A DNA stretch of 64,000 nucleotides from a virus: IMG/VR virus record IMGVR_UViG_3300023174_000001, positions 71,070 to 135,069 of that record; one strand, 5' to 3'. Within the stretch, counting starts at the first letter, position 1. The number at the start of each line of letters is the position of its first letter. Under the pieces are notes generated by a model that was given only the letters and a program-made list of their open reading frames with translations, ran no database searches and was not told the origin of the DNA. Made by a program: the position numbers and the translations under genes. This document shows positions 2,209 to 63,264 of this stretch, in pieces.

Positions 2209-2623
2209 CCCCCATCTAGCAACCAGGTTACCCTTTTTTCCATGCAAGTGGATTCCATGCTGACGCATGGAAAAAGAGGGGACCTGGTTTTTTGCTTCCT
2301 CCCGGCTTCTCATCAGAACTCCTTATGCTTTTCCGGGGGATACCCTGAAGATTTCGCTCACAGCGAACAAGATAATCTTGACATCCGGGAATGAATCTGG
2401 AATGATTGAGTTATAGATAGTATGAACCAAATAGAAACACCAGAAAAAAAGATTTCCAAAACCGGGAATAAATCTGGGAGAAGTTTAGTTCTACTTATTA
2501 CAACTGAATAAAAAGTCAAGGACACGCCAAAAAAAGTTTTTGAAATGAACTTGACAAGTGTAAGACCCTGTGCTTATACTTTCTAATACCAAATACAAAT
2601 GCGTCAATTACTAAGGAGACCAA

Positions 2624-3148: not shown

Positions 3149-3164
3149 GAATAGGAGACCAATT

Positions 3165-8755: not shown

Positions 8756-8979
8756 TGACACAGGTAAGCAAAGCAATCGAGTATCTATCTAAGTTAGACC
8801 CTAACGAAGAAATAGCGTTTACTGGTTATTGGGTGAAGAGTGATGTTGAGGAAAACAACAACATCAAACTTACTGACGAACAGTGGGAGACGATTTGTTG
8901 GAAACACGAAGACAACATTGAAGTCCACATTGACGAAATAGTCGAGTTGGTTTTATCACAGGAGGAAACAAATGAGTAA
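8755..8979 (+). CDS. Hypothetical acidic protein
   Basis: TAATG coupling. Confidence 0.75.
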   Translation: MTQVSKAIEYLSKLDPNEEIAFTGYWVKSDVEENNNIKLTDEQWETICWKHEDNIEVHIDEIVELVLSQEETNE

Positions 8980-9175
8980 GCAAGTTTATTTCGTAGTTTA
9001 TTACGACACCGAAGATAAGCAACTTTACCAAGACACTGGGACTTTATTGGCTCGTTTTGGTGAGGGCTCTATCTGGGACAGCGAAGAAGAAGAGTGGAAT
9101 CATGAAACAGAAATCTCTGTCTTAGCAGAGGCTCAGAACGCAATGGACACTGTAATCAGTAATACAGCAGTCTAA
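8972..9175 (+). CDS. Hypothetical acidic protein
   Basis: AGGAGG RBS; overlap coupling. Confidence 0.75.
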   Translation: MSKQVYFVVYYDTEDKQLYQDTGTLLARFGEGSIWDSEEEEWNHETEISVLAEAQNAMDTVISNTAV

Positions 9176-9277
9176 GCATTGACAGCGAGAGCCACTTACC
9201 CTATACTTGTAGGGTAGGTGGCAATCGCCATTTCAAAAAAGAAGTAAAATGATTTAGAAAAGAAAGTTGGTAACTTT

Positions 9278-9544
9278 ATGAAAAAGTTCACAGTAATCGC
9301 AGAAATAAACTTCGAGGTTTATGACACTGACGAGTTTTCGGCTGAGCGTCAAGGGCGTATTGCCCTAGCACGATTCGTTGGAGACCCTGATGCAAATGGC
9401 TACAAAGACGAATACGCAGACTTGCCTACTCCGTCTATCCATCCAATCAGAGTTAGAGTCGCAGACGAGAATGGAAAGTTCTTGGCTGGCTGGAATCCAG
9501 CAGACTTAGACGAGGCTGAACCGAAAGAAAAAGACGCAGAGTAA
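9278..9544 (+). CDS. Hypothetical protein
   Basis: Downstream of the TTGACA-N17-TATACT promoter at 9179. Confidence 0.7.
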   Translation: MKKFTVIAEINFEVYDTDEFSAERQGRIALARFVGDPDANGYKDEYADLPTPSIHPIRVRVADENGKFLAGWNPADLDEAEPKEKDAE

Positions 9545-9573
9545 TCTGCCCCGAATAGAAAGACAAAAAGACA

Positions 9574-9858
9574 ATGAACCTAGCACAAGCACTCGGTCAC
9601 ACGATTAGAAAAAATCGTCTTGCCAATGGTATGACACTCAGAGACCTGAGCGTAAAGTCAAACACTTCACTTGGCTATCTATCTGAGATTGAAAGAGGAA
9701 CGAAAGAAGTTTCTTCCACAGTCTTGGAGAGTATTGCTAAGGGATTGGGAACACCTCTCTACACGATTGTCTCAGGCTCGGCTTTGGAGATGATGTATTC
9801 ATCTACCGAAATCATTGACGAACCCAGCAGACACATGGAAAACCTAGTAACCCTATAA
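9574..9858 (+). CDS. clgR: XRE-family HTH regulator, ClgR-like
   Basis: TLRDLS....SLGYLSEIERGTKEVSS..L..I...L..PL matches the ClgR recognition-helix region (SLGYLSE[IV]ERG.KE.SS). Confidence 0.75.
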   Translation: MNLAQALGHTIRKNRLANGMTLRDLSVKSNTSLGYLSEIERGTKEVSSTVLESIAKGLGTPLYTIVSGSALEMMYSSTEIIDEPSRHMENLVTL

Positions 9859-25876: not shown

Positions 25877-25954
25877 TAGCAGCCATTTTTTACCTCGTGC
25901 TTTCATGCATCTTTTACCCAGGTTGCCAGTTTTTCCTTGTATTACAATGAAGAC

Positions 25955-27343
25955 ATGGCTAAATCTATTATGGAACAGTTGGCTGAACTACCAGAAGCCG
26001 AGCGTGCTCTAGCACTTGCTGGCATGGACCCAGAGACTTTGCTTTGGGACTGGTCAGTTTGGGGCAGACCTGAACAGCAAGCACCTGAAGGTGATTGGAA
26101 TATCTGGATGTATCTCGCTGGCCGTGGTGCTGGTAAGACTAGGAGTGCTGCCGAGTGGGTAAGAGAGCAAGCCAAGCACACTAACACGGGTCAAAGGCGT
26201 TTCGCTCTTGTTGCTCGTACTGCCGCAGATGTGCGAGATGTAATCGTTGAAGGTGAGAGTGGGATTATCAATGTGTCTCCTCCTAGCGAGAGGCCATTGT
26301 ATGAGCCATCAAAGAGAAGACTAACTTGGCCTAATGGCAACACTGCCACCTGCTTCACAGCAGATGAGCCTGACTCACTTCGTGGTCCTCAGTTCACTCA
26401 CGCTTGGGGAGATGAGGTCGCTGCTTGGAGGCAGACACCCGATGCTGCTGGTATGACAGCCTTTGACAACCTTCGTGTTGGTACTCGTCTAGGACAACAG
26501 CCAAAGATTATGATTACCACTACACCTAAGCGTGTGCCGTTGCTCTACAAACTTATTGAAGAGGCAAAGGGTGGTCGTGTAGTAATCAGTCGTGGTTCTA
26601 CAATGGATAACTCAGGCAACTTGTCTAGTGCTTATCTAGATGCTATTACTGGAGTGTACGCTGGTACTCGCCTTGCTCAACAGGAACTTTATGGCGAGAT
26701 GCTTGACAGCGTTGAAGGTGCTCTATGGACAGATGAGTTGATTGAACTAAACAGGCAGAATGCTCTTCCATTGAATACACCACTTCGTTGTATTGGTGTT
26801 GACCCATCAGTAGCAGAGAACCCTAGAGATGAATGTGGGATTGTTGTAGTCGCATCCACTGGCGAGAGAGATTTATATAAGCGTCAGGCTTGGGTACTTG
26901 AAGATGCTTCAGTACATGGCTCGCCTGAAGTGTGGGCTAACCGAGTAGTTGCTATGGCTCGTAAGTGGGGATGTCCAGTTATTGCTGAAGTAAACCAAGG
27001 TGGTGCTTTAGTTCGTAATGCTATCAATGCTATTGACCCTAACATCAAAGTATTAGAAGTACACAGCAAGTACGGTAAGCAACTTAGAGCAGAGCCAGTA
27101 GTGCTTGGGTATGAACAGGGTCGTGTACATCACATCGGGTTCTTAGCCGAACTTGAATCACAGATGCTTAGTTGGATTCCAGGTGAAGGTAAATCTCCAG
27201 ACAGAGTAGATGCTTTAGTCCACGCTCTTACGGCTCTTATGATTAAGCCACCTGCTGGATTTGTTGGTGGCAAACTAACTGCCAAATCAATGGCTAGTCG
27301 TAGAATGCCAGATGCTAGAAGTAGTTTGTTTAGATTGAGATAA
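25955..27343 (+). CDS. terL: Terminase large subunit
   Basis: Walker A AGRGAGKT, LRGPQF, Walker B AWGDE, TTTPK; nuclease GVDP, EVNQGG, SPDRVDA. Confidence 0.95.
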   Translation: MAKSIMEQLAELPEAERALALAGMDPETLLWDWSVWGRPEQQAPEGDWNIWMYLAGRGAGKTRSAAEWVREQAKHTNTGQRRFALVARTAADVRDVIVEGESGIINVSPPSERPLYEPSKRRLTWPNGNTATCFTADEPDSLRGPQFTHAWGDEVAAWRQTPDAAGMTAFDNLRVGTRLGQQPKIMITTTPKRVPLLYKLIEEAKGGRVVISRGSTMDNSGNLSSAYLDAITGVYAGTRLAQQELYGEMLDSVEGALWTDELIELNRQNALPLNTPLRCIGVDPSVAENPRDECGIVVVASTGERDLYKRQAWVLEDASVHGSPEVWANRVVAMARKWGCPVIAEVNQGGALVRNAINAIDPNIKVLEVHSKYGKQLRAEPVVLGYEQGRVHHIGFLAELESQMLSWIPGEGKSPDRVDALVHALTALMIKPPAGFVGGKLTAKSMASRRMPDARSSLFRLR

Positions 27344-30059: not shown

Positions 30060-31880
30060 TTGGGCGTTTTCAGGCGTGATAAGTCAGCAACACAGAATGC
30101 TCCAACAAGAGGTATTCGTGCGTCTGCTCCAATCACTAACAATCTACCTGCCAACTCTGTCTTCCTAAAGCCAGTTCCTAACGCTGCTTCTTCCGTTGCT
30201 TACAATGCCCCAAGAGCGTTGACTGCTGCCGCCACTCAGTTGAAGATTGGCGACAGAAGTGAAGCCGAACAATTCAAAAACAGAAGGGCAGCAGCCTCTT
30301 CAGCGTGGCAACAAGAAGCGTGGGAATACTACGACGCTATCGGTGAAGTAAAGTATGCGTTCAACTTAGTTGCGTCTGTTGTCTCTCGTATCCGTCTTTA
30401 CCCAGCAGTAGTTTCTAATCCTGCCGAATCACCTAGCCCGATTAGGAATGTCGAAGCATTTGACCAGCGTTTAGTTGCCGCAGCAGAGCGTGCTCTACAA
30501 CGCCTTGATTCAGCGTACGGAGGTCAGGCTGGACTTCTAAGAGACGCAGCCCTAAACCTACAAGTAACAGGTGAGTGCTACCTAAGCCAAATTCCTATGC
30601 GACCATCAGACGGAACTCCAGAGTCTTGGGACATTCGTTCCGTTGACGAAATCTCAGTAGATAGTCGTGGAAACATTGTTATTGCCCCTAGACGAGAACT
30701 CAAGACTATGGGTGGCGGTTCTCAGAAGGGCGTTTACCTTTTGCCTAAGGGTGCGTTCATTGGTCGCATTTGGAAAGCACACCCACGCTACTCAGAAGAA
30801 GCAGATTCTTCAATGCGTGGAATTCTAGACCTTTGCTCTGAACTACTTCTTCTAAACAGAACTTTCCGTGCGACAGCCCGCTCCCGTCTAAACGCTGGTG
30901 CTCTTTACTTGCCAGACGGTCTTTCAGTTGCTGCTAACCCAGACCCAGACTTCCCATACACAGACGCGGATGGTATCTACGACGCTCCTACTCCAGAGGA
31001 GTTGGAAGACGAGTTTGAAGACCAGTTGATGGATGCTATGACAACTCCTATCAAGGATGAAGATTCAGCATCTGCCGTTGTTCCACTTATTATTCGTGGT
31101 CCAGCAGAACTCGGCGACAAAATTAAGCAGTTCAAGTTCGAGCGTTCATTTGACCCTATGCTTGCTGCTCGTGCTGACCGTGTGCTTGAGAGAATTATGC
31201 AGGGTCTAGATGTCCCTAAGGATATCGTTTCTGGTCTAGCAAATGTGAAGTACTCGAACGCACTTCAGATTGACGAGTCGCTATACAAGGCACACATTGA
31301 GCCTCTTATGCTTTTGATTGCTGATGCTTTGACCGTCGTCTATCTACGCCCTTACCTACTTGCTAACGGGTTCACCGAACCAGAAGTAGACCGCATTGTT
31401 GTTTGGTACGACCCATCACAGGTTGCTACCCGTAATGACCGTGCGGCAGACGCTGATATGGGATTTGAGAAGATGGCAGTTTCATTTGAGACTTGGCGTA
31501 GAGCACACGGTTTCTCTGAAGCAGAAGCACCAAGCCCTACTGAAGTTGCCTTGCGTCTACTTGTTGAAAAGGGAATGATTACTCCAGAACTAACGGAAGC
31601 AATGCTTGGCGTTGTTGCCCCAGATGTTATGGAGAAAATCCGTGGAGCAGCACAGGCAGCACAGCCAACTCCAGCAGTTCCAGGTCTAGACCAAATGCTT
31701 CAAGGTGGCGAGCCACCAGCAGAAGGGGAACAAGCAGCACCCCCAGCCGAAGCCCCGCCTGGACTAGCAGAGCCTACCGCGACTCCTGAAGCACCAGCCG
31801 AAGCACCTGCTGAAGAAGTACCAGCACCAATTGTTCCAGCAGATGCCACTCCACCCGACCTAGCCGAACCTACTCAGTAA
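30060..31880 (+). CDS. Portal protein
   Basis: WQQEAWEYYDAIGE, SRIRLY, RIWKAHPR....ADS, SRLNAG.L..P, SASAVVP; position after terL. Confidence 0.88.
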   Translation: MGVFRRDKSATQNAPTRGIRASAPITNNLPANSVFLKPVPNAASSVAYNAPRALTAAATQLKIGDRSEAEQFKNRRAAASSAWQQEAWEYYDAIGEVKYAFNLVASVVSRIRLYPAVVSNPAESPSPIRNVEAFDQRLVAAAERALQRLDSAYGGQAGLLRDAALNLQVTGECYLSQIPMRPSDGTPESWDIRSVDEISVDSRGNIVIAPRRELKTMGGGSQKGVYLLPKGAFIGRIWKAHPRYSEEADSSMRGILDLCSELLLLNRTFRATARSRLNAGALYLPDGLSVAANPDPDFPYTDADGIYDAPTPEELEDEFEDQLMDAMTTPIKDEDSASAVVPLIIRGPAELGDKIKQFKFERSFDPMLAARADRVLERIMQGLDVPKDIVSGLANVKYSNALQIDESLYKAHIEPLMLLIADALTVVYLRPYLLANGFTEPEVDRIVVWYDPSQVATRNDRAADADMGFEKMAVSFETWRRAHGFSEAEAPSPTEVALRLLVEKGMITPELTEAMLGVVAPDVMEKIRGAAQAAQPTPAVPGLDQMLQGGEPPAEGEQAAPPAEAPPGLAEPTATPEAPAEAPAEEVPAPIVPADATPPDLAEPTQ

Positions 31881-31889
31881 GAAAGAAAA

Positions 31890-32363
31890 ATGCATCAGAA
31901 ACTAGCAGAAAAGTTAGCGGTATGTTTAGGAGACACCGTTACCTATAAATTTATTGCTCACGGTTATCACTGGAATGTAAAAGGACCTGAGTTCACTCAG
32001 TTCCACGATTTCTTCCAAGAACTTTACGAGGATGCGGACTCAGCAATTGACCCGCTTGCCGAAAACATTCGCAAACTTGGGTATGACTCTCCGTTCACAT
32101 TAGAAGATTTTTCTTCATTGACCTGCGTACATGTAAATCCAGTTTCTGGAGACCCGATGAAGATGGCTGAAAATCTTTACACAATCAATAAGCACCTGAA
32201 AGACTGTCTTACTGAAGCCTTTGACATTGCTAATGCTTGTAATGAGCAGGGAATTGCTAACTTCCTAGCAGAGCGTATTGATATGCACGGTAAGTGGATT
32301 TGGCAGATTGGGACCACTATTGGTGCTGACGCAACAGTTATCACAAGAATCGAGATTAAGTAA
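31890..32363 (+). CDS. dps: Dps / ferritin-like DNA protection protein
   Basis: HGYHWNVKG..F...HDFFQELY......D..AE.IR; ERI..H.K..W. Confidence 0.92.
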   Translation: MHQKLAEKLAVCLGDTVTYKFIAHGYHWNVKGPEFTQFHDFFQELYEDADSAIDPLAENIRKLGYDSPFTLEDFSSLTCVHVNPVSGDPMKMAENLYTINKHLKDCLTEAFDIANACNEQGIANFLAERIDMHGKWIWQIGTTIGADATVITRIEIK

Positions 32364-35300
32364 TGAGCGAATACGAAGATTTTGAGCCAATCAATGAGAT
32401 AAATAAAATCATCCAAAGTGAGGACATTCAAGCACTTCCTTCTATTTACGAGAAGAAAGAGAAAACAAATGTTGTCACCGAGGGAACTGCTCTAGTAGCA
32501 TCAGCAAATAAGAAAACTCTACCTAACCGTAGAGTTGGAAGATTTGAAATGCTTGAAGTTCTAGAGAGAAGTCTCAGCAGGACAGTTTTAAACTTCAACA
32601 ACCCATCTCAAAGAGCGTTTACCGCAATGAGAGAATTATCAGACTTTGTGAATATGGCAACTACTGGAGCAACTCCAAAGATTGCTGACGCACATAGAGA
32701 CCTACTTCCAGTAGGACACCCACTATCAACCAAGAAACACAACTTTTCTCAAGAAGAGTTGGCTTACGCTCGTGCTGAGTGGATGTCGGCAGACCCTAGA
32801 ATTGCCGAAGAGTTCCGCCCAATGGTCGCTACTGCTTTTGTTACACCAGCAGATAGCGTAGAGCGTGAGTATCTAATAGCAAAGTTGGAAGCAACAGACG
32901 CTACCCTAGTACCAAGGGATGTCATCCTCGGCCTAACGGCTGGCGGAGACCCCTATGGCGGGGGGAACTCTTTTTTAGCCCGTTCGACGCGTGCTAGGGC
33001 ACAGCGTCGAGACAGAAAAGGTCGATTTGCTTGGATGGGCGGAGGAGCCAAAGTATGGCTCGGCGAATTATTCAACGCTGTATCCTCGCTTTTTAGATTT
33101 GCTGGCTATAACTCTAAAACTGACTCGTTTGACCTAGAAGGTATCCCTGGCAGTCCTTACTTCGGGAAGATTGTTAGCGTACCTGCTTCCAAGGTAGAGG
33201 CAGTAAAAGCAATTCTTCCTGAAATTCCTGGACTTGCCCTGCCTAAATCAAAGAGCGTTTCTAAAAACCTTATTGTTGACCCAGCATCTTTAGTTGTAAA
33301 GGATGCTCCAACTGGTTGGACAAAAGTTTCTAGCGAGAACGGCGTTGACACTTTCCGTTCTGCTGATGGCTGGGTAGCAACTCGCTACCCTAACCTTGCT
33401 TCAGCACCTAATGAGCCAAGCATTACTAGAGTTCGCGGTGTCAATGATGACAAGAGTATAAATCCAGACCTTCCTGTTTACCACATTGCTAAAGGTTCTA
33501 GCGACGGTCTAATTACAGATAAGCCATTTGCCATAACTCAAGGTTGGGGAGACGCTCAGGCGTTGATTGCTCGCTATGACAAAAAGATTACTTCTAGTGG
33601 AAAGCGAAAAAAGGCTAGCAAGTCAGCCCAGCAAAAGTTTATAAAGGGCTGGACAAAAGGCGAGGGTGGCTACATTCCAGGTAAATGGAATGCTTACACT
33701 GGAACATCAGATACAGCAGGTGGAAAAGATTTCTACACAGACCCAAGCGGAAGATATGTTGCCGTAAAATTAGCAACCAAACAAGAAGATATACAAGACT
33801 GGATGCCAGACAGAGAAGGCATTATAAAAAGAAGCGACGAGCGTACAAGAAAGCAAGTACTGGAGAGTGGGCTACCAATTCACACCTTTGACGGTGCTAA
33901 AGATTGGGATGGAAATGTCGACAACCTATACAGACTTGAAAGAGTAAAGAGCGACGGTAGGAGAGAACTACTAGGTTTCTATCAAGACCTAGAGGATATC
34001 GAGAGAGATACAGAAATCCCACTTACCGAAGATAAATCTCAAGATTTCTACGAGAGCGTTATTGCCGATACTATCCAAAATGGTGGAAACACAATTGACT
34101 TTGTTGATGGAAGTTGGCCAGAGGATGGTTATATCGTTGCTCACGAGGCAGACATTCCACAAAAGGGCGGGACTCTAGCCAAGAGAGAAGAGTTAGTTAC
34201 CCCAGAAGATTTTGCTGACCCAATTGAAGGTCCAAAAAAACTTCGTGCTTTTGTACTAAAAAACCAAGACAAACTTTCTCAGCAAGGTTTCTACCTAGGT
34301 ACTTGGCTAGACACCGTTGATGTAACAGATGAAAACGGAAAAGTTGTAGACCAGCGTGAGATGGTATTCCTAGATGTTAGCGAATACGAGCCTAACTTTG
34401 ATAAGGCGTTTGATAAAGCCGAAGCCAGAAGCGAACTTGCTTACTATGGCGTATCTGAGGGTAGAAGTTTCTATGTAAAGGATGAAAAGCATAGGCGAGA
34501 AGTAGTCCGCAAAACTCCAGTCTTCGATGAAGCAGAAGAAAAAAGAGTTAGAGCAGAAGCCGACAAGATTATCAAAGAAGAAGGTAAGTGGTTTTCTGAT
34601 AACAACCTAGAACTACAGAGAACTAGAGTTGCCTTCTGGAAGGGTAGTGGCGATGACGCAATTCCTAATCCTGAACTACAAAAAGATTACCCAGAAATAT
34701 ATAGAAGACTAACTCGCAGATTTGAAGCCGAAAAATCGAGAGGGTCTGTATTTAGAGAATACATTCGTTCTGTCTTCCAAATGTCTGACGGTATGGACCC
34801 AGGTGGTAGAAACGATGGTCTATCTGGTGAATTGCTAAGAACTAGAGATAACTATGTCGGAAACGACAGAAAAACTTTAGAAATGAACAAAGCCCTGCGT
34901 GATGGCGGGGATGTTACTTCCAAAGTACAGAAGATAGATGCTCTAGTAAACAAATCTAAGTTGAAAGACGACACTCAGTTCTTTAGAGGTGCTTGGCTTG
35001 ACCCAGAACTTGTAAAAGATATGGAAGTCGGAGATATGTTCTTTGACAGAGCATTCCAGTCTATGGGCCTAGAAGAAGACACTGCTTCAAGTTATTTGGA
35101 TTTTAGAGAAGAAGTTGCTCCAGGTAAATCTAGGGTCATATTTAGATTACTCTTGCCAAAGGGTATGAACGCTATCCATGTTGGCGATGATGAAGTTATT
35201 GGTAGACGCAACACCAAAATGCGTATAATTAGAAAATCAAAACTAGACGGTACAACCTACTTTGATGTAGATGTTGAGCCTCAAACGAAAGAAGAAATAG

Positions 35301-38300
35301 ATGCCAGAATCCAAGGGCGAGTCGCAAAACCTGAAGAATCTAAAGATGGTGCAAGTTCCAGCAAACTTCCAGCAAATGACGGAGGAGGAACAGATGGCTT
35401 GGGCGACGGAGGCACACTCCCAATTAATTACGGCCCTAAACCAGCAGGACAAAGGCAAAACAACAGAGAGTTAGAGTCATTTGACCCTAACGACCCAGTA
35501 CCAGCAGCACCAAGAAACGCTGGTGGTATGACAACAGGTACTTGGTGGGCTTGGGAGAAGGGTCCTGACGGTCAGCAATACATTGACTATATGAGGCAAG
35601 TGGCTTGTCGTTTGACCGGGTTGCCAGTGCCAGAAACTCAATTTGATAAAGGTAGAGGCCTACACTTTATGCTAAGCAGGGGTTGGGGTGCTCCTAATGA
35701 AAAAAGCATTGCTGGTATGGTCAATGCAATTGCTGATGGTCCAGCACAGCCTACTTTATTCCGTGGATTAGGAATAAGCGATGTTGAAGGTGACGCTTCT
35801 TTGCTAGGCAAGCAAGTGGGCGACACTATAGATATGCCTTTGGCATCTTTTACTCGTTCTGCTGGTGTAGCGACTTGGTACGCCAATGACAGGTCCAGAA
35901 CTTCTGGCACACCAGTGATAATCAAAGTACAGCAGGGTGCTAATGGTGTATCTCTATCAGCAAAAAGTTCTTACTATCCTATGGACTACGAGACTGTAGT
36001 AAATGGAAAATTTGAAGTAGTAAGTACTGAAGATGTAACTATGCCTTTCTGGGATAGAAGTTATGTTACTTTTCACAGTGGCAATACCCAAGCCGGGGAG
36101 CCTGTCGATTTAGACCCAGTTATTGCTAGGAGAGAATTTGACATTCCACCTGAGGTTCTAGTTAAAGTTAGAGAAGCACTAAAAGCAAACCCTGATGCCG
36201 ATTTGTCGGAATTTGGCTCAGACACAATAAGATTTACTAATGACCGTAGGCAATATGACCGCCAACTGTCAGTTTCGGTGTGGAAACTTTCAGAGCCTAA
36301 AACTTTTAAAGTATTAGAACTAAAGCAAGTAGAGCCACTTAGAATCAAAACTAATAACTCCGATGGTACCGAGCAGTCAGACTCCACTTTACTTATGGGG
36401 CCAATTTCTCAAAATCCAGCCCCAACTCTTTCACTGAACAACTCCCCTAAACTTATGGGCGAAAGACCAGAGCAAGCCACAAGAATAGCCGACCCAGAAG
36501 AAGCAATCTGGGATAGGGCACTGATTGACATTGGAATAAGAGATGAGGTCATAGACGAGACCATAAGAACTCAAGATAATTTAGAAAATGTCACAAGACA
36601 GGCGTTGAAAGACCATGTTTCCTTAGAAATAAGGAAAAAACTAAAGGGTGTCAGCGACAAAGAGTTTGTAGAGTTGATGACGCAGGGGTTAGCCAATAAC
36701 CTAACGGTAGAAGATTTTGGTTTTGAAGGCACTAGAAATATTGATTTTATTGGGGTAGTAGATATAGATGGAAACAGTAATAGAACTCGTGGTCTATATA
36801 CCAGCATCGGTAGATTAATAAGTTCAAGTGGAGGCGTGCCTCGTAATTTTCCAAAAGATTTGGCTGACCGTCTAAAGACTGGAAAAATTACACGCAAAGA
36901 TGCTGAAGAAGTTGTAAGGCTACTAAACGAGTTCAGAGCAACTCCACCTTTTGTTGATAATGGAAAATTACACATTCCAAGTGTTGACGACAAAGATTTT
37001 ATGGAATACCTGAGATATAGAACTGTCTCTAATTTAATTTCAATGTGGGCTGTAAGTTCTAACGGAACTAATCCTTTATCTCTTGCTATTCAGTCAGTAG
37101 CCGAAAAAGAATTTGGCGTAAAAGGTATGGCGGAATGGGATATGCCTATTGGAGTTGCTAATGAAGTTAAAGATATTGCCAAAAAGAACGAAAACATACT
37201 TAGAAAATTCTTAAGGGCTCAGTATGACCTCACTCAAGAATATTTTCAAAAAAAGGGAATATCAAAAATAACTCTCTATCGTGGAATAAAAGAGTTTATG
37301 AGACACGATATCAAAGATGCCACCTTCCCTTCAGAAAATGGATTTATGGCCTCAATAAAACTTAGACCACTTTCTGCTTGGTCTACCAGCATGGGAATTG
37401 CTAATAGATTTAGAAACATTCAAAGTGGAAAAATGTTCCGTAAAGAGTTTGATGTGAAAGATATATTCTCTCTACCAAGCACTGGCGTTGGATGTTTTCC
37501 TGAAAAAGAAATTGTAGTACTAGGTGGACTAACTAAAGATGTGGATATATCTGGTGAATACAAGGTTGACCAGCCTAGAGCAGTGTTCCCTTCTCCAGAG
37601 CCAAGACCAATAACATACAAAGAAGACCAGCCACAAATACAAGTAAACAATGCTCCAATTGACCTAAGCAGAATTCCGCCAGATGATGGCGGGGAAGAGC
37701 CAGAACTAGACATCTTTGACCTAGAAGGTGTAAACCCATTCTACGCAGACCCTGCTTTCCACAAACAACAAGTTGCTAGAAATATAGCGGACTCGGATGA
37801 AATGGTGGAAGTCAGCGACTTCGATATGGTTGAACTATCTGGTTGGTTCAACTTATTCTCCACTGACGAATTGGAGTGGGGCGATGATGGAAAAAGAGCA
37901 GTTGGCTCTATTCGACTACTTGCTTTGGATAACGGCGAATGGTCTGGCGATTATGATTTTTCTGACCTCCTCTCTAGTGTTGAAGAAAACATTAAGTTTG
38001 GCGGAGTCGAGCCATTTAAAAAGGGCAGTGTTCTTGAACGCGTTGTAAACGGGTATATAAACGGAGAAGACCCGTCAATTTCAAAAGAAGAACTGGCTAA
38101 ATTCTTTGAAGAATACAACGAACACTTTGATGTAGATTACGCCGACTCTTACCTAGTTCCAGACATTGAAAATCAGCAATTTATGAACCTTCTTAGAGAA
38201 GAAATTGCTTCAAACTTAATCCATGTTTGGGCAGAGACTTCAAATGGCGACCACCCAATGTCTCACGCCATTCAAGAAATTGCCGCCGACATTTTGGACA

Positions 38301-40834
38301 TAAAAGAGCCAGCAGAGTGGGATGAAGGTAATAAAACACAAGATGAAAAAGATACTTTATTCAATTCTATTTTAGACATTAGAGAAAACTACGGAGAGGC
38401 TTTAGAGGCATTTGTCAAAGCCCAGTATCGAATTACTCAAGAGTGGTTTGAAGAGCGTGGGATAAAACAACTTAGAGTTTATCGTGGCGTAAAAAAGCCT
38501 ATCGGGGCGGATGAGAAGAGTGGGATAGTAAAACTTAGACCGCTATCCGCTTGGTCTCAAAGACTGGACACTTCTTTGGATTTTACAGGTGGCACAATTA
38601 ATCCTAATGGGACAGTTTTTAGGTCAATAGTCGATGTAAAAGATATTTTCTCTACTCCTTTTACTGGGTTTGGTTGCTTAGAAGAAGAAGAAATTGTACT
38701 TCTTGGTGGCAAAAAACAAGTTGACGCAAAACCAGTAAAGGATGTTTGGGGCGGTTTTTGGAAAGACGAGCCACAAGTTGTCATAAACAACGCCCCTATC
38801 CCAAACCTTGGGCCAAAAAAGGGTAAAGGCGGTCTGTCTAAAGAAATCGAAAGAAGACAGAAGCGGGTACAGCAACAACAAGAAGAATATGCTAAACGCC
38901 TAGAAGAGCAAGAAAAAGCCAAAGAAAATATCAAGGGTCAGGTTGAAGCAGATAGAGAAGAGTTACAGCAACAAATTCCTCAAATTGCTCAGTCGCTACC
39001 GCCTATGGTAGAGGATTTATTTGACCCAAATAACCCTATGAATATTTTAGATGCTAAAGACATAACTCAAGACATTTTTGGACTTCCTGGCAGTCCAGAC
39101 ATTAGAGAACCTTACTCGGTTTCGGTTTTGGAGCCAAACCAAGTTTGGAAAGATTTAGTAAAAAATCTAGAAAATCTAGGTTTATCAAATGCTAAAGATA
39201 TTGAAAGTGAAGTAAATGACAAATTTAATTCACAGATATTAGACATAAAAAGAAAAAGAAAAAATGCTTCTGAATCAAAAGAAAAATTAGAAAAATCTTT
39301 AGTGAGGGTGGAAAGAAGTATAAAGGCTCTTGAAGACGAGATGATAATAAATAATTTTGGACTCAATCGGCCTTCGACTGACCCTGCTACTGCACAATTT
39401 TTAGCCCTTATCTCTAGAATTAAATCCGATTTTGATAGTTGGGCTAACCAATATTATCACTTAAGAGCGGGTGGCCCCGCCGATATTGCTAGTTCTCCAC
39501 TATATGATTTGGCAACTATGCTACATAAAGGCGAATGGTCAAGAATTGTGACAGGTGCTAATTCTCAACTAAATGAAATTGGAAAATTACAGGACAGCAG
39601 AGAGAGACAAAAAGGATTTGACAGAGTATTTGCAAAGGTTGTATTAGGCACCTACTTAGTTCCAAACATGGACTACGAGCAGAATCTTAAAAAAATACAT
39701 GAGGAAAAGTATGTAGAAGTTATGTTAGGTAGAAAAGTACCTAAGAGCGTAGTAGATTCTGCTATTTTTGGTCTAAACAACGATTGGATGGAGTGGTATA
39801 AAGACGCGAGCAAACTAAGAAAAGCCACTGACGATTTCTCTAAAAAGGTTTCTGAAGTTATAAAAGAGAAATTAAAGGAACTTGGAATTGAATTTGAACA
39901 TGATGTGTCTATATCAGCAAACAACATAAATTACATCGGCACTGGCAAAGTTAATATATTAAAACTGGCAGAAGGTAAGCCAAAGAGCGAGTGGTGGGAG
40001 GCTGATGGAAATGTCGGTACGCATCTAAAAAATGCTTCCTCGTACGCCTCTATTTTAACAGAGGCTTTACAAGCATTCCCTAGGCCAATTGCCGTAGTCC
40101 TACAAAAATTTATAGTGGAGCATCCAGAAATAATATTCTTTGGTAGCCGTAGAGGTGCTTGGGGTACCACCCCTAAAGACACAGATATAAAAGAAATAAA
40201 AAATGTTGACCCTAAAGATAAGCATATGTTCCTACAACTAGACGGTAGTACTAGGGAAGAGTCCGTGATTACCGCATCTCACGAACTAACCCATATGCTG
40301 ATAACTCAAATTCTTCCTGAAATGCAACCAGTTGAGTGGGCAGTGTTGTCGTCGCTTATTAATCAGACAGATGCAAATGGTAAAATAAGCCACGACTTAA
40401 TTGGAGCAAACGGTGGGGACATTTTGATAGGCGGGGAGTTGACATCTCTTTATCCTAACGATGCTAGGGCCCTAATGACGGCTGAGCCATCTGGCTACAC
40501 TCCAAAAGTGGCAACTCCATACTCCACTAAGTATCAAAATTACGCAGGATTAGGGGCAAAAAGAGGCAGTGTAGTTGGCTTAAATCCATACGGACACGGA
40601 GAGTTACTATCTACATTGACGGAATCTATGTTTAATGGCTCTAATCAGGTGTTTTACGGGCAAGATGGAGTATCTCCTGGCGACAAAGTGCGTATAGGAT
40701 ATAATGCAGATGGAACAGTAAAATACTTTACAATACCAGAATCGCCAATTTTTAATACTGGAGCACTTCCGCTTGGACTTGCGATAGCATTGTTAATGAA
40801 CCAATTAGCGAAAGATAAGTTAGAGGTAATATAA
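32363..40834 (+). CDS. Giant polyvalent protein (2823 aa): four ADP-ribosyltransferase-like domains and a C-terminal zincin
   Basis: R-S-E motif sets FFRG/FQSM/DDEV, LFRG/LASFT/DYET, LYRG/LSAWST/EKEI and VYRG/LSAWS/EEEI; HELTH...GELLS; N-terminal RDRKGRF. Confidence 0.8.
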   Translation: MSEYEDFEPINEINKIIQSEDIQALPSIYEKKEKTNVVTEGTALVASANKKTLPNRRVGRFEMLEVLERSLSRTVLNFNNPSQRAFTAMRELSDFVNMATTGATPKIADAHRDLLPVGHPLSTKKHNFSQEELAYARAEWMSADPRIAEEFRPMVATAFVTPADSVEREYLIAKLEATDATLVPRDVILGLTAGGDPYGGGNSFLARSTRARAQRRDRKGRFAWMGGGAKVWLGELFNAVSSLFRFAGYNSKTDSFDLEGIPGSPYFGKIVSVPASKVEAVKAILPEIPGLALPKSKSVSKNLIVDPASLVVKDAPTGWTKVSSENGVDTFRSADGWVATRYPNLASAPNEPSITRVRGVNDDKSINPDLPVYHIAKGSSDGLITDKPFAITQGWGDAQALIARYDKKITSSGKRKKASKSAQQKFIKGWTKGEGGYIPGKWNAYTGTSDTAGGKDFYTDPSGRYVAVKLATKQEDIQDWMPDREGIIKRSDERTRKQVLESGLPIHTFDGAKDWDGNVDNLYRLERVKSDGRRELLGFYQDLEDIERDTEIPLTEDKSQDFYESVIADTIQNGGNTIDFVDGSWPEDGYIVAHEADIPQKGGTLAKREELVTPEDFADPIEGPKKLRAFVLKNQDKLSQQGFYLGTWLDTVDVTDENGKVVDQREMVFLDVSEYEPNFDKAFDKAEARSELAYYGVSEGRSFYVKDEKHRREVVRKTPVFDEAEEKRVRAEADKIIKEEGKWFSDNNLELQRTRVAFWKGSGDDAIPNPELQKDYPEIYRRLTRRFEAEKSRGSVFREYIRSVFQMSDGMDPGGRNDGLSGELLRTRDNYVGNDRKTLEMNKALRDGGDVTSKVQKIDALVNKSKLKDDTQFFRGAWLDPELVKDMEVGDMFFDRAFQSMGLEEDTASSYLDFREEVAPGKSRVIFRLLLPKGMNAIHVGDDEVIGRRNTKMRIIRKSKLDGTTYFDVDVEPQTKEEIDARIQGRVAKPEESKDGASSSKLPANDGGGTDGLGDGGTLPINYGPKPAGQRQNNRELESFDPNDPVPAAPRNAGGMTTGTWWAWEKGPDGQQYIDYMRQVACRLTGLPVPETQFDKGRGLHFMLSRGWGAPNEKSIAGMVNAIADGPAQPTLFRGLGISDVEGDASLLGKQVGDTIDMPLASFTRSAGVATWYANDRSRTSGTPVIIKVQQGANGVSLSAKSSYYPMDYETVVNGKFEVVSTEDVTMPFWDRSYVTFHSGNTQAGEPVDLDPVIARREFDIPPEVLVKVREALKANPDADLSEFGSDTIRFTNDRRQYDRQLSVSVWKLSEPKTFKVLELKQVEPLRIKTNNSDGTEQSDSTLLMGPISQNPAPTLSLNNSPKLMGERPEQATRIADPEEAIWDRALIDIGIRDEVIDETIRTQDNLENVTRQALKDHVSLEIRKKLKGVSDKEFVELMTQGLANNLTVEDFGFEGTRNIDFIGVVDIDGNSNRTRGLYTSIGRLISSSGGVPRNFPKDLADRLKTGKITRKDAEEVVRLLNEFRATPPFVDNGKLHIPSVDDKDFMEYLRYRTVSNLISMWAVSSNGTNPLSLAIQSVAEKEFGVKGMAEWDMPIGVANEVKDIAKKNENILRKFLRAQYDLTQEYFQKKGISKITLYRGIKEFMRHDIKDATFPSENGFMASIKLRPLSAWSTSMGIANRFRNIQSGKMFRKEFDVKDIFSLPSTGVGCFPEKEIVVLGGLTKDVDISGEYKVDQPRAVFPSPEPRPITYKEDQPQIQVNNAPIDLSRIPPDDGGEEPELDIFDLEGVNPFYADPAFHKQQVARNIADSDEMVEVSDFDMVELSGWFNLFSTDELEWGDDGKRAVGSIRLLALDNGEWSGDYDFSDLLSSVEENIKFGGVEPFKKGSVLERVVNGYINGEDPSISKEELAKFFEEYNEHFDVDYADSYLVPDIENQQFMNLLREEIASNLIHVWAETSNGDHPMSHAIQEIAADILDIKEPAEWDEGNKTQDEKDTLFNSILDIRENYGEALEAFVKAQYRITQEWFEERGIKQLRVYRGVKKPIGADEKSGIVKLRPLSAWSQRLDTSLDFTGGTINPNGTVFRSIVDVKDIFSTPFTGFGCLEEEEIVLLGGKKQVDAKPVKDVWGGFWKDEPQVVINNAPIPNLGPKKGKGGLSKEIERRQKRVQQQQEEYAKRLEEQEKAKENIKGQVEADREELQQQIPQIAQSLPPMVEDLFDPNNPMNILDAKDITQDIFGLPGSPDIREPYSVSVLEPNQVWKDLVKNLENLGLSNAKDIESEVNDKFNSQILDIKRKRKNASESKEKLEKSLVRVERSIKALEDEMIINNFGLNRPSTDPATAQFLALISRIKSDFDSWANQYYHLRAGGPADIASSPLYDLATMLHKGEWSRIVTGANSQLNEIGKLQDSRERQKGFDRVFAKVVLGTYLVPNMDYEQNLKKIHEEKYVEVMLGRKVPKSVVDSAIFGLNNDWMEWYKDASKLRKATDDFSKKVSEVIKEKLKELGIEFEHDVSISANNINYIGTGKVNILKLAEGKPKSEWWEADGNVGTHLKNASSYASILTEALQAFPRPIAVVLQKFIVEHPEIIFFGSRRGAWGTTPKDTDIKEIKNVDPKDKHMFLQLDGSTREESVITASHELTHMLITQILPEMQPVEWAVLSSLINQTDANGKISHDLIGANGGDILIGGELTSLYPNDARALMTAEPSGYTPKVATPYSTKYQNYAGLGAKRGSVVGLNPYGHGELLSTLTESMFNGSNQVFYGQDGVSPGDKVRIGYNADGTVKYFTIPESPIFNTGALPLGLAIALLMNQLAKDKLEVI
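35301..35474 (+). CDS. Nested overlapping small gene (+1 frame, 57 aa), candidate ART partner/immunity protein
   Basis: MPESKGESQNLKNLKMVQVPANFQQMTEEEQMAWATEAHSQLITALNQQDKGKTTES, directly after ART domain 1, where the main frame is a G/D/S-rich linker. Confidence 0.5.
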   Translation: MPESKGESQNLKNLKMVQVPANFQQMTEEEQMAWATEAHSQLITALNQQDKGKTTES

Positions 40835-41464: not shown

Positions 41465-44400
41465 ATGACCTACGCCTTTGGCATTTACTTTGAAGATGAT
41501 GACAACCTCGGACTGGTAGCGGCTGGTAATCGCTGGAATTCTGGCGGAAACTCTACTTTAGCCCGTCGTCTCCGTGTGGCTATGCAACGCCGTGACCGTT
41601 ATGGTCGCTGGGCTGAAATGGGTGGAGGAATCTCCTTCAAAGGTAGGTTCGGCAACACTGGAAGAGTCATGGATGCCGTTGGTCGTTATGTCGGCCCCGC
41701 TGAGCGTGAAGGCTATATGCGTGTCTATGTCACCAGCGGAAGAGGTCTTCAAACTGGTGTCTATGAAGTGCCATCAAAAGTTGCCACTGTAGCAAAGGCT
41801 CTTCTAAGTGAAGAAGCCCTAAAAGATGTCGGCGTAAACCTAGATGTCAATGGAAACCAAGTTGGCGATGTTTTAGATAGAGATATTGAATTCTTCGCTG
41901 GAATGTTCAAGGGCAAGCCAACCGATTTTGAATTGGATATGGCTCGTGGCAAGGTTAGCCCGAAAGAGAAAAATACAATTGTAAAGGCTCGTCTAAAGGC
42001 TCCAGCCCACAAGTCATACAACATTGTTGATAAGAACGGCGTTCGTATTGACAAAGATGAAGAGCCTACTAAGCCAGATGTAAAGAAGCCAAGCAAAAAG
42101 GCTAAGCCAGCCGAAGTCTTCCCGCTACCAGACTTAGATAAAGATATAGCGGAAGAGAACCCTAAGAAATGGGCAACGCTATCTGAAGAAGAACGAGCAG
42201 CAAAACTTAAAAAAGAGCGTAGTCGTCGTGACTTTTATGTAGGTGCTAATGGCAAGCGTATTCCAGATAATAAACTAACTGACGCAGATAAAACTCCAGA
42301 GAACCGCCGTATCCGTGACTTAAAGAACCACCGTGTTCTTGACGGCAATGGTCGTCTTATAGAGTTCATTCCAGAGTATAAGCCAGAAGCAAACCCAGTG
42401 CCACAGGGCGAATTCCACCCAGTGGAAGACCCAGATGAAGGCTTTTGGAACGCCAACCAAGTAAAGCCGGGGGAAGTTCAAAAGAACCTGACTACTCCTG
42501 AAGAAGTTTACGAAGCACTATATAACGGTGGATTTGTTGAAGTACCAATAGAACTAGCACTAGCAGCGGGTGATATTGCTTATGCTGATTTGCCATTCAT
42601 AGGTAGAGACGAAAACCCTCTATTCCAGTCAAATCCTAATGACCCTAGATTTAGAGAAATTGCTAATATCCTCTCTTCTCTACCTCCAGCACAGGAAAAC
42701 AGACTAAAGCGTGCCATAAACCTAGCCCTCATGAGTGAAGAAAAAATTGATGCTCTAAAGGCTTATCTAGAAGAAAATGTTGGAGAGGCTACTGGTTTAT
42801 CCCCAGAAGCGTTTGCTGAACTGCACAAAAAATTCCGTAACCTAGGTGTCGACCTCACCAACATGCGTATCCAAGGTGTAGATGCTTTCAGCAACGATAA
42901 CCTCGGTGCTGAGCGTATTAATATGCCTCAACTTGACGCAGACGACCAAGCGGATTTCTTGGCATACTGCGACAGACTTGGTATCAACTACAAAGAAGCA
43001 ATGGCTAGACCGCAAGAACTGCACCCTATCCAAGCAGAAATGGACTTTGGGGATGTCATAAAGATTAAGAAATCTTGGCTGGACCCTGAACTTCGCAAGA
43101 GGTTTGGTATGGATGACCAGTACCTATTTGTTACTAGAGACGGTTATGTTCTAGACGGACATCACAGATGGTCATCTGCTCTTCTTGCTGAGATGGAGAG
43201 CGGTAAGCCAATCAACCTAAAGGTAATGGTTCTAGATATGGACCACGAAGATGCCTTGAAGTTTGTGAACGAGTACAACGACCATGTTGGTATCACTCGT
43301 CAAATGGTTGGCGGAAATAAGGTCGCTGACCCTAGACCTGAGGCCCCTAAAGCCGAACTACCTACAGGTCCATCTGTTGTTTCTGATGATGGCGGAATTG
43401 TTCCAAATTATGGCCCAGAAGGACCAACGCCACCTGATGGCGGGGACAATGTAGTAACTCCTAGTGGAGAAAACTTTAATAACTGGCTCGATAGAGAACT
43501 TGCCAATGTTGGCGACAGGATTATTCCAGAATTTAGCGGAAAACTAACTAACGATACCCCTAACCCAGAGAGCAGAACCAGCCCTTTCCCTGGCTCTCGC
43601 ACCGTGGTAACTAATCTTTTGGCATATAGAGACTCACTGATGTCTGCACTGAAAGAAAGTGCACTTGACGGAAACACTGAAAAATTCAAGTTTCAATTTG
43701 AAATTGCTAAAAGAGTTACAAAACTCTTAAATAAGATACACGAAAATTTTTCTAACGACAAAAAATATGGTGCCGATACCGAACTAGAACTTAGTACTAG
43801 CAATCCTGAAGAAAAACTAAAAGCAATTAGAGTTCTTCCAGAAACTATGAAGACCGAAATTGATAATAGAGGAATTAAGAGAATAAAGTCATTTAGTGCC
43901 GTAATTATTGCTAAAAACGGAAAACCTTTCTTACTAAAGTGGTCTACGCATTCTTCACAGGCTTACAGTATTAAGCCAGATGGAAGCATTAACTCTACTA
44001 ATGACGGCGGTGGAACAACTTTTGCAGAAATCCAAGACTATAACAGTGTAGTTGATGGAAAACCAGTAGCAACGATTGCCCATGTGGGTGGAGCATTTAC
44101 CGAAGATAGCCACCATGCTCTAGGCTTTGGTGGTGCCCACATTATGCTATCCCGCTGGGTTATGCATATGTTTAATGGTGGAAAACTTCAGCACAGTTCA
44201 AACTTGAGTGCTAGAGGAAACGCATACTCAAAGATGGTCTCTAGAGACATGCGTTGGAACAATAGAGCACAGGCGGACAAAGCAGTTCAAGTAAATTGTC
44301 CAAATGCGGATATTTTTAAAGTCCTCACAGACATGGGATTGGTTGACGGGGAATATATTCCAGCAACACCTGGTGCTAAGCAGAATGATAATACTCCTGG

Positions 44401-61245: not shown

Positions 61246-63264
61246 GTGGACCAAATTAAGTCGCAGGTAGATAGCCTGTCTGAACTTAGTGACGAGCAAG
61301 TCTCGGAACTTCAGGCCGCTATCGTAAGCGAATTTGAGAAGGTCGAGTCTCAGGACATTTCTCCAGAAACAGTTGACGCTATGTCATCCCTCGCCGATAT
61401 GTTGGACACCGTACGCGGTGATATCCAGCGTAGAGAATTGCAAGCAGAAGAACTCGCTTCACGAGCATCTGAAGCAGCAATGCGTGTCAAGGGTGAGGGT
61501 GAAGGCGATGTGGCTCCGGGTGAAGGCAACGATGTTGCTCCTATGGAAGAAGTAATTCCAACCGACGAGCCTGTTGCACCTGCTGAGGAAGAGCCAAAGC
61601 CAGAAGGCGAAATGGGCGAAATGCCTGTTTCACCTGAGGAAGAGGAAGCCCCAGTAGTACCTGCCGAAGAAGAAGAAGAAGACAAGCCTGTAGGCGAGTA
61701 CTCGACTGAAAATTCTGCCGATGCGTCAATTAGTACTGAAGAGACTCTAGAGTTCTCAACCGAGGCTACCCCAGAGGTAGTTGAACCAACCGAAGGTGGC
61801 GAAATCGCTACTGAGGAAACACCAAACATCGAAACTCCAACAGTGGAAGAAGTTCCACAGGAAGAACAGGTTACTGTGACCGCATCAGCAGAAGAGGGCT
61901 TCCAAGCCCCGGCTGACCGCCAGCCAGTTATCCAGGTAAAAGAGACAGCACAGGTAGCAATCACTGCTGGTGCTGACATCCCTGGTTACACTGCGGGAAG
62001 CACAATTGACAGCATTTCAGAAGTTGCTGTCGCAATGGAGAAGAGAATTCACTCTCTTCGCCGTGTAAATGGTGGAGATGGAGAGCAGCACATCGTTGCT
62101 TCATTCTCAACCATCTACCCAGAAGAGAGAACTCTCTCAACTGACGCAGAGTCAAACAAGGCAAAGATTGATGCCGTTGTTGGTCAGCAAGCACTTACTG
62201 CTTCTGGTGGACACGCAGCACCATTCGAGGTCAAGTACGACATCTTCGGACTAGGTTCAACCACTGACCGCCCGGTTCGTGATTTGCTTCCTAAGTTCCA
62301 GGCTGACCGTGGTGGTGTTCGTTTTGTAACTCCTCCAACACTAATTAGCCTTACAAACGCAAACGCAAACGCTGCCTCAGTTTATGGCTACGCAAACGCT
62401 GTTGGTCTGTGGAACGAAACTACTGCTACTCCAAGCGTTGCTTCATGGCAGAACAACCTAAGTGACTCTACTGGAACAGTAAAGGACTACTTAACCGTAA
62501 CAGCCGCTGCTGAGCAGGTTGCTCAGACTGACGCTGTAACTCTACAGTTGCAGTTCGGTAACCTAATGACCCGTGCTTACCCAGAACTAATTGCTCGTCA
62601 CAACGAGTTGGCTCTAGTTCAGCACGCTCGCGAGGCAGAACTGGTCCTAATCAACAAGATTAGCGGTTTCAGCAAGGCTGTAAACGCACACGCTGCTACC
62701 TCTGAGGCCGCAAACCTTATTGGTGTTGGTCGTGACTTCTTGGTACAGGTTCGTAAGGCATCTGTTGCTTACCGTAGCCGTCACCGTCTATCTCCAGAGA
62801 CTCGCCTAAAGGCGATTATCCCTGCGTGGATTTACGATGCAATGGCTGCTGACTTGACACTAAACATGCCAGGTGATGGCAACCTAGGTGTTGGAGCATC
62901 AGAAATCAAGGGTTACCTATCTGGAAGCAATGTAGACCTAGTGGCATCACTAGACCTTGGCTCATTCGGTGCACAGCCTGGTGCTACCGCTAAGTTGCTT
63001 GAGTTCCCAGACACATTTGACTGGTACCTATTCGCAGAGGGTTCATTCCTCTTCCTAGATGGTGGAACTCTTGACCTTGGTATTATCCGTGACTCTTCAC
63101 TGGTAAGCACCAACGACTACAAGATGTTCATCGAAACCTTCGAAGGTGTTGCCTTCGTTGGTGTTGAATCTCTAAAGATTACAACTGCAATTAGCGTCAA
63201 CGGTGTGGCTGCGGCTCTACGCGACACCACTGGTGGTGCAACCGCTGCTGCTATCGAAGAGTAA
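61246..63264 (+). CDS. Major capsid (hexamer-type) protein with acidic N-terminal scaffold region
   Basis: TAAGGAGG RBS with GTG start; ALTASGG..AP...YD, RPVRD.LP.F..DRGG, FLFLDGGTLDLGIIRDS.L..TNDY..F.ETFEG. Confidence 0.9.
   Translation: MDQIKSQVDSLSELSDEQVSELQAAIVSEFEKVESQDISPETVDAMSSLADMLDTVRGDIQRRELQAEELASRASEAAMRVKGEGEGDVAPGEGNDVAPMEEVIPTDEPVAPAEEEPKPEGEMGEMPVSPEEEEAPVVPAEEEEEDKPVGEYSTENSADASISTEETLEFSTEATPEVVEPTEGGEIATEETPNIETPTVEEVPQEEQVTVTASAEEGFQAPADRQPVIQVKETAQVAITAGADIPGYTAGSTIDSISEVAVAMEKRIHSLRRVNGGDGEQHIVASFSTIYPEERTLSTDAESNKAKIDAVVGQQALTASGGHAAPFEVKYDIFGLGSTTDRPVRDLLPKFQADRGGVRFVTPPTLISLTNANANAASVYGYANAVGLWNETTATPSVASWQNNLSDSTGTVKDYLTVTAAAEQVAQTDAVTLQLQFGNLMTRAYPELIARHNELALVQHAREAELVLINKISGFSKAVNAHAATSEAANLIGVGRDFLVQVRKASVAYRSRHRLSPETRLKAIIPAWIYDAMAADLTLNMPGDGNLGVGASEIKGYLSGSNVDLVASLDLGSFGAQPGATAKLLEFPDTFDWYLFAEGSFLFLDGGTLDLGIIRDSSLVSTNDYKMFIETFEGVAFVGVESLKITTAISVNGVAAALRDTTGGATAAAIEE

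Follow-up and report, generated by a model that had tools for sequence, protein, structure and literature searches.

The 64,000-nt stretch of DNA analysed here (the window) is the right-hand part of the 135,069-bp virus record IMGVR_UViG_3300023174_000001 (IMG/VR), which has direct terminal repeats, and it contains an open reading frame (ORF) for a giant protein of 2823 aa. The present study concerns a much smaller ORF that lies wholly within this giant ORF, on the same strand and in the +1 frame, directly behind the ADP-ribosyltransferase (ART) module referred to as ART1, the last helix of which (QTKEEIDA) ends at the start of the nested ORF (Table 1). The main frame over the same nucleotides reads DARIQGRVAKPEESKDGASSSKLPANDGGGTDGLGDGGTLPINYGPKPAGQRQNNRELE, a G/D/S/P-rich linker, and in the AlphaFold2 prediction for a 281-aa segment of the giant protein (aa 780-1060) strands and helices extended up to residue 204, with a predicted local distance difference test (pLDDT) score below 50 over linker residues 207-281. 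The model of the nested peptide consisted of a polar N-terminal tail, a short turn helix (residues 21-25) and a long helix (residues 28-52), with a mean pLDDT of 72.5 that rose to 90-93 in residues 21-40, and the conserved motif of the peptide is (L/V)xVPxNFxxMTEEEQMAWAxxA. The initial annotation of this locus proved correct in every descriptive element, since the ATG, the 57 codons, the +1 frame and the quoted peptide all matched exactly; the low-complexity linker it had seen in the main frame is indeed G/D/S/P-rich and predicted to be disordered, and the "ART domain 1" it had placed directly before the nested ORF was recovered by the profile and structure comparisons given below.

Table 1 The nested ORF with its parts, the giant gene that contains it, and the neighbouring genes of the window
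Feature	Position	Strand	Remarks
Nested +1-frame ORF	35301-35474	+	ATG 35301, TAG 35472-35474; 57 codons: MPESKGESQNLKNLKMVQVPANFQQMTEEEQMAWATEAHSQLITALNQQDKGKTTES
Purine-rich stretch, then +1-frame stop	35287-35300	+	GAAAGAAGAAA, then TAG 35298-35300, directly 5' of the ATG
Core under +1 purifying selection	35345-35440	+	Peptide residues ~16-47: strand-like LVKVP, PxNF turn, long helix
Variable polar tail of the peptide, with stop	35441-35474	+	Lies where the downstream modules of relatives begin to differ (module junction)
Main-frame LPINYGP	35417-35437	+	Belongs to a set of five module-junction motifs of the form [LIV]x[ILVP]N[YN][GSA]P
ART1 module (aa 780-979, main frame)	34700-35299	+	Predicted R-S-E type ART fold
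2823-aa ORF (host gene)	32363-40834	+	Multi-module; several ART-type modules joined by linkers
Terminase	25937-27343		
Portal	30060-31880		phrog_776 match
157-aa gene			Between the portal gene and the 2823-aa ORF
ORFs of 4227 aa and 1620 aa			Between the 2823-aa ORF and the major head protein gene
Major head protein	61246-63264		

In one genome, the length of the nested ORF is no more than chance. When the giant gene was resampled synonymously 300 times, 60% of the trials gave a sense alternative-frame ATG-ORF of at least 57 codons, and the probability that the +1 frame stays open over the nested span, given the main-frame protein, was 0.17 for the window and 0.03-0.22 per sequence. Stop codons in the +1 frame need a T at main-frame codon position 2, so a hydrophobic-poor linker easily stays open. 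The giant gene also contains two longer alternative-frame ORFs with junk-like translations, at 37797-38048 (+1, 83 codons) and 33685-33891 (+2, 68 codons), which served as controls.

The comparison with relatives was more informative. An alignment-based scan of IMG/VR yielded 10 contigs, six of which are identical over 1.7 kb (locus positions 2501-4200), leaving five distinct relatives with 61-71% nucleotide identity to the window in ART1. All five have the +1 stop, then the ATG, then an ORF of 55-56 codons with the same end position, and 20 residues are invariant among the nested peptides, including V19, P20, N22, F23, M26-M32, W34, A35, A38, L42 and L46. The control ORF at 33685-33891 was riddled with stops in five of five relatives, as was that at 37797-38048 in the one distinct relative having the region. 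At the same time, the main frame continues for 1455 to more than 2000 codons in all relatives, 11 homologous proteins keep a similar main-frame linker, and the probability of an open main frame, given the +1 peptide, was 0.0017 by synonymous resampling. Dual coding at this locus is real, with the main frame needed as a connector and the +1 frame for its sequence. Within IMG/VR, the peptide motif occurs solely nested in the giant gene: a scan with a DNA pattern for MTEEEQM[AV]W and with alignment A3 returned the same 10 contigs only, and a single-protein scan of viral contigs gave no relatives.

The codon positions at which the sequences vary indicate which frame is under selection, because main-frame position 3 is position 2 of the +1 frame and main-frame position 1 is the +1 wobble position, so that the two frames predict opposite patterns. 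In 200 ungapped codons of upstream ART1, the variable columns at main-frame positions 1/2/3 numbered 126/102/177, against 23/11/10 in the 31 codons of the core (Fisher p=8.7e-11 for position 3 in the core versus upstream ART1; p=0.002 for position 1 versus position 3 inside the core). When 25-codon windows were slid along the giant ORF from its beginning up to the linker (1034 codons), position 3 was less variable than position 1 in only 6 of 127, and all 6 cover 35288-35500. Counting by the Nei-Gojobori method gave, for the main frame, proportions of non-synonymous (pN) and synonymous (pS) differences of 0.264 and 0.126 in the core and 0.290 and 0.648 in upstream ART1; for the +1 frame, the corresponding values were 0.136 and 0.538 in the core and 0.375 and 0.344 upstream. 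Overlap-aware dN/dS estimates were 0.28 (+1) and 1.27 (main frame) for the core, as opposed to 0.80 (+1) and 0.43 (main frame) for upstream ART1. The same pattern can be followed in single codons: Gly and Asp codons of the main frame are frozen at four-fold and two-fold sites throughout the alignment (GAC GGA GGA GGA xCA GAT GGC), and the N/D and T/A swaps seen in the main frame are silent changes of E/Q codons in the +1 frame. The first 15 and the last 11 codons were near-neutral in both frames among the six sequences, with both ratios at about 1 over the first 15.

Additionally, population variants were collected from contigs of four freshwater metagenome runs, belonging to four studies, over positions 34700-35700, where 40 of 97 variant places were listed. 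Among the listed variants, 8 of the 10 in the nested ORF fell at main-frame position 1 and none at position 3, whereas 24 of the 30 outside it fell at position 3 (Fisher p=9e-6); all 10 were non-synonymous in the main frame, and 7 were synonymous in the +1 frame. Three of the listed variants fall in the first 15 codons, and two of these are silent in +1, which hints that +1 translation may already cover this part. The alignments, the variants and the structure prediction indicate that, over the core of ~95 nt, purifying selection at the amino-acid level acts on the +1 frame, and that the main frame there is an apparently unconstrained spacer that is predicted to be disordered. The assertion of the initial annotation that the nested ORF had "stayed translatable" is upheld by this selection and by the frame-specific dN/dS comparison that it had itself proposed (core values above), and the interruption of the +1 frame by stops in relatives, which it had named as evidence to the contrary, did not occur in any of the five.

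The nested peptide also has homologues that are called as separate genes. A profile built from the six nested peptides and run against 1.84 billion representatives returned eight matches at E ≤ 0.001, which include proteins of 52, 54 and 50 aa (E 1.6e-4 to 2.8e-4) and a 140-aa protein in which the motif occurs twice. The enlarged profile listed 27 matches at E ≤ 0.1, of which 24 reached E ≤ 1.1e-9, mostly of 50 aa (range 50-73). These proteins come from JGI, ENA, Logan and NCBI, some of them on contigs of up to 23 kb, and a further cluster member of this family of ~50-aa proteins lies on a 47-kb contig. Alignment of the nested peptides with the family by hhalign gave a probability of 98.5% over 38 aligned columns, and the family consensus is MNDDRPKKSFLKVPENYxQLSEEERKQWAAEAxAAIVKSLKERDSKPKQ (P0021, P0026-P0046, also P0019 and P0020). 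The two groups agree in length and in the succession of a polar N-terminal tail, a hydrophobic-x-(V/L)PxN(F/Y) segment, (M/L)(T/S)EE, a W and then a helix; they differ in that the family members are called as separate genes and show 24-35% identity to the window peptide. No Pfam family or name was found for the ~50-aa family.

Since the polar tail running from the Met and the total length match those of the ~50-aa genes, the nested ORF fits a complete gene with its own start, and the existence of the family suggests that the small gene is older than the overlap and that its nested copy is complete. The separate homologues appear to fit the swallowing of a pre-existing small gene better than a birth within the linker. 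As adjacent effector genes fused, translation would have come to run through such a gene in a different frame, and the linker would then be its "shadow" in the second frame. The initial annotation had proposed that an ART gene and its partner were absorbed as a pair into the polyprotein; the absorption of a pre-existing gene agrees with the separately called homologues, while the ART-partner part found no support.

Other searches gave little. A word-index protein search with the six nested peptides produced one weak UIM-like match only (E=0.19), and no match above threshold came from sequence searches of Pfam, PHROGs, PADLOC and PDB in which the peptide and its homologues were the queries; UIM-like matches (E 0.27-0.3; RAP80_UIM 0.014, below the cut-off) were rejected as a resemblance between short acidic helices. 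ESM Atlas gave no usable match for P0001 and only unnamed clusters below 0.8 for P0040. No match was found in GenBank phage searches, at the DNA and protein levels, with the region, the peptide and P0021, in metagenome contigs scanned with the ART1 alignment A1 and with P0020, in genome contigs scanned with alignments A3 and A4, or in viral contigs scanned with P0020 and alignment A4. Copies of the peptide elsewhere in the phage or in its other linkers were not found, and a weak in-frame likeness at 42074-42232 in the 4227-aa ORF (E 0.04-0.1) was dismissed as chance. Profile matches to PASTA-repeat and TPR-repeat proteins (P0015, P0018) share only the strand-helix start "VPxF..M[TS]E.E...W" and were regarded as motif-level likeness. 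A related helix motif, VPxxxxM[TS][DE]EE..W.., occurs twice in the Lys/Pro-rich 140-aa protein P0017 and in at least five repeats (PDFASMSEDEQMRWLESLAARQGADPAELI) in the 1696-aa TPR protein P0018, and it may be a widespread short binding module.

As to the mode of translation, the ATG stands directly after the stop in all six sequences. An RBS-like (ribosome-binding-site-like) AAGGAG (L004-L009) or AAGGAA (L002 and L011) lies 7 nt 5' of it in three of the six distinct sequences, and the window, L003 and L010 have only the weak Shine-Dalgarno-like site listed in Table 1; other genes of the window use AGGAG-type sites. A promoter/terminator scan of 34600-35800 gave signals at shuffle level only. 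Initiation would occur internally on the giant-gene mRNA, at the conserved ATG 35301, in which case the nested product would be made together with the polyprotein. This route is favoured because of the stop-ATG arrangement in six of six sequences, the AAGGAG/AAGGAA in three of six, the lack of conserved shift-prone codons and, above all, the homologues. Overall, 35301-35474 is probably a real nested gene with a start of its own, and that the +1 frame is translated and selected, by whatever route, can be held with considerable assurance.

Two other explanations of the +1 signal have to be weighed against the nested gene. A programmed +1 frameshift just past 35300, ending at the stop at 35474, would produce a short isoform comprising the N-terminal region and ART1 with a conserved helical C-terminal tail, and there would be no separate gene; selection in the +1 frame is equally expected in this case, the first 15 +1 codons are unconstrained among the six sequences, as codons 3' of a shift site could be, the Shine-Dalgarno-like site of the window is weak, and frameshifts are common in the structural genes of tailed phages. 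However, no conserved slippery motif or homopolymer was seen between the +1 stop (35298-35300) and the core when the alignment was inspected by eye, without a dedicated frameshift-site tool; the codons there vary among relatives (GGG CGA versus GGA CTC), frame 0 has no stop, and the RNA fold is not unusually stable (z=+0.73). The ATG immediately after the stop in six of six sequences also speaks against a shift, as do the homologues, which are complete ~50-aa proteins with a Met start and a similar short polar tail, and none of the eight matches of the all-length profile search was a fusion of an ART with the peptide, so a frameshift is improbable. The other explanation does away with the gene altogether: the ORF would be a chance product of the G/D/S/P-rich linker, kept alike by a nucleotide-level constraint (a recombination junction or an RNA element) or by recent homogenisation. 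Its length and open frame are within chance in one genome, as said above, and the linker is a recombination junction in which some relatives resemble each other more closely than they do in the flanking domains, as in L010, the nucleotide identity of which to the window is 100% at 35270-35299 and 88% over the nested ORF but 61% in ART1. Homogenisation is thus real at the junction, yet it cannot invert the codon-position pattern, since homogenisation, like an RNA or DNA element, would lower divergence at every codon position. The fold score quoted above lends no support to an RNA element, the main-frame N/D and T/A changes are synonymous E/Q changes in +1, and independent homologues exist; this explanation is disfavoured and is the least credible of those considered here, with hardly any weight left to it.

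Several points weigh against a nested gene with its own start. Translation is deduced from evolution only, and the free-standing status of the ~50-aa homologues from gene calls only. The RBS of the window (GAAAGAAGAAA) is weak, and it is good in some relatives only; the ATG is half-expected from the main-frame residues D/N-A/V; and no purifying selection was detectable in the first 15 codons in either frame (six sequences), so that the start depends only on the conserved ATG, the three population variants and the likeness to the free-standing family. The DNA comparison comprised five distinct relatives, which are mosaic and related to one another, and the site tests are not fully independent. 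Some of the metagenome contigs may share lineages with the IMG/VR loci, and 57 of the 97 variant places were unlisted.

The function of the nested gene was considered in connection with the module in front of it. The catalytic motifs of R-S-E ARTs are an Arg, the Ser of the STS region and the Glu of the ExE turn. A profile of aa 780-1060 matched the Vis ART (4xzj, E=9e-4), and Foldseek with the ART1 model gave 139 matches at E ≤ 0.001, with Vis 4xzj as the best (E=1.3e-9) and C3, VIP2 and Certhrax also found. R96 (FFRG), S121 (FQS) and E165 are invariant in 11 ART1 sequences and align with the corresponding positions of Vis, and the residue two before E165 varies (D/N/G/S). Profile and predicted structure together indicate that "ART domain 1" is a real ADP-ribosyltransferase fold of the R-S-E type. 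The very end of ART1 (35270-35299, VEPQTKEEIDAR) showed 80-100% amino-acid identity, against 51-68% for the remaining domain (L002-L011), and was partly frozen at synonymous sites too; it may be conserved as the RBS and start context of the nested gene, through a main-frame function, or both.

Behind polymorphic-toxin genes, phage MuF-toxin fusions among them, there is normally an immunity gene (PMC5576092), and the nested protein could accordingly be the cognate immunity protein (neutraliser) of ART1, kept inside a multi-toxin ORF. The nested ORF starts at the very end of the ART1 fold, as an immunity gene would start directly after a toxin domain, it follows ART1 in 10 of 10 contigs, and transcription on one mRNA would tie its production to that of the toxin modules. 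Nevertheless, it did not co-vary with the ART1 subtype: between the window and L010 the amino-acid identity is 51% in ART1, 100% at the junction and 91% in the peptide, i.e., the nested gene travels with the linker and not, as a toxin/immunity cassette would, with the ART1 subtype. Relative L027, an IMG/VR contig, has in the same giant gene a second, diverged ART1-like module (~8975-9800) that ends in the same DVEPKTKEEI motif and is followed by a different linker, in which stops abound in the +1 frame; a second nested gene is therefore lacking behind it, and no nested homologue occurs at the four other junctions of the giant ORF pair. No matches to known immunity, antitoxin or defence families were found in the Pfam, PHROGs, PADLOC and PDB searches, and virion-packaged ARTs, such as T4 Alt, need not have an immunity protein. 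Prediction of a complex between ART1 residues 1-205 and the nested peptide (score 0.00, mark 0.32) gave no verdict and counts as evidence neither way. The idea of an ART immunity protein is somewhat weakened by these results, and we regard it as rather unlikely.

As a working guess, the nested product may serve in the producing cell as a chaperone or a neutraliser, being a small helical binder that works with or on the polyprotein or its effectors; an independent host-directed factor is about equally likely. In its most specific form, an embedded antidote, a small gene swallowed during effector fusion would survive in the second frame of a linker, and its product, made from the same mRNA, would neutralise or chaperone the toxic modules until packaging; this is a speculative proposal, to which we give a minor share of belief.

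The giant gene itself lies between the portal gene and the major head protein gene (Table 1), and its product is probably a virion-delivered multi-effector protein of an uncultured freshwater phage. Lake and freshwater metagenome runs contain the DNA of this phage repeatedly (20 holders are listed, belonging to 10 studies), and no RNA runs were among these listed holders. Metagenome relatives of the 2823-aa protein form a mosaic of 1991-3229 aa, and a weak DRAT match was obtained for aa 1619-1686 of the protein. The second ART-like module of the window (~aa 1040-1390; 35475-36440) is an insertion in comparison with several relatives (P0006, L002, L003, L004, L010); in relatives without it, the linker joins straight to an "ERPEQATR..DP..AIW" segment (window ~36440). 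Because this module is absent from L003, the tail of the nested peptide there resembles the +1 frame of the window at 36438-36485. The motif [LIV]x[ILVP]N[YN][GSA]P, searched as a regular expression, was found at 35417, 36428, 37637 and 38777 in the 2823-aa ORF and at 43397 in the 4227-aa ORF, and relatives exchange different downstream modules just past it; it may be a candidate processing or recombination junction motif. Its copy in the linker, LPINYGP, overlaps peptide residues SQLITAL, and hence both frames may be constrained there.

Gene callers forbid nested genes on the same strand, so that no annotation of these phages shows such a gene. Here a simple comparison of codon positions across a few metagenomic relatives was sufficient to tell the hidden gene from two longer chance ORFs. 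Moreover, a segment of a giant effector protein that passes for a "low-complexity linker" can owe its existence to another gene, of which it is a by-product; this bears on the reading of domain architectures, on predictions of processing sites and on the fusion of effector genes. If the nested product does act on the toxin modules of the polyprotein, it would represent a novel means by which a multi-toxin gene is accompanied by its antidote, and the linkers of other giant conflict proteins might hide similar genes.

Embedded genes are classical in phages: in lambda, the o-spanin gene Rz1 lies wholly within the i-spanin gene Rz, in the +1 frame, and in phiX174 genes B, K and E lie inside A, C and D. 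As in these systems, a small complete gene is located wholly in a larger phage gene, on the same strand and out of frame, with both products presumably made from one mRNA and both frames kept open. Unlike in those cases, the small gene here overlaps the part of its host gene that encodes a disordered interdomain linker of a 2823-aa multi-effector protein, and of the two genes it alone appears to be constrained there at the amino-acid level; it has free-standing homologues, and there is no lipoprotein signal. The products of Rz and Rz1 form a complex, whereas the two products considered here are not known to be functionally linked.

The giant protein resembles the "polyvalent proteins" of phages (Iyer et al. 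2017, PMC5512222) and the MuF-toxin fusions (PMC5576092) in being a giant phage protein encoded beside the portal gene, with several ART/effector modules that are shuffled between relatives. The immunity gene of MuF toxins lies downstream and not inside, and the main text of PMC5512222 contains none of the words "overlapping", "frameshift" and "linker", so that a nested gene is not described in that text. Overlaps can arise when the stop separating two adjacent genes in different frames is lost, a route listed in PMC2268670 (see also the review PMC8227390). The origin proposed above fits this route, the small gene being the older of the two and the overlapping frame the younger one, disordered and under weak constraint; it differs in that the origin is reconstructed here from separate homologues and dN/dS only, and no unfused intermediate was seen. 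Literature searches, which did not cover supplementary files, turned up no report of any gene embedded in a polyvalent or multi-ART protein of a phage. Whereas embedded phage genes as such are classical, what is new here is the location in the linker of a giant multi-ART protein of the polyvalent type, together with the clear asymmetry of constraint between the two frames.

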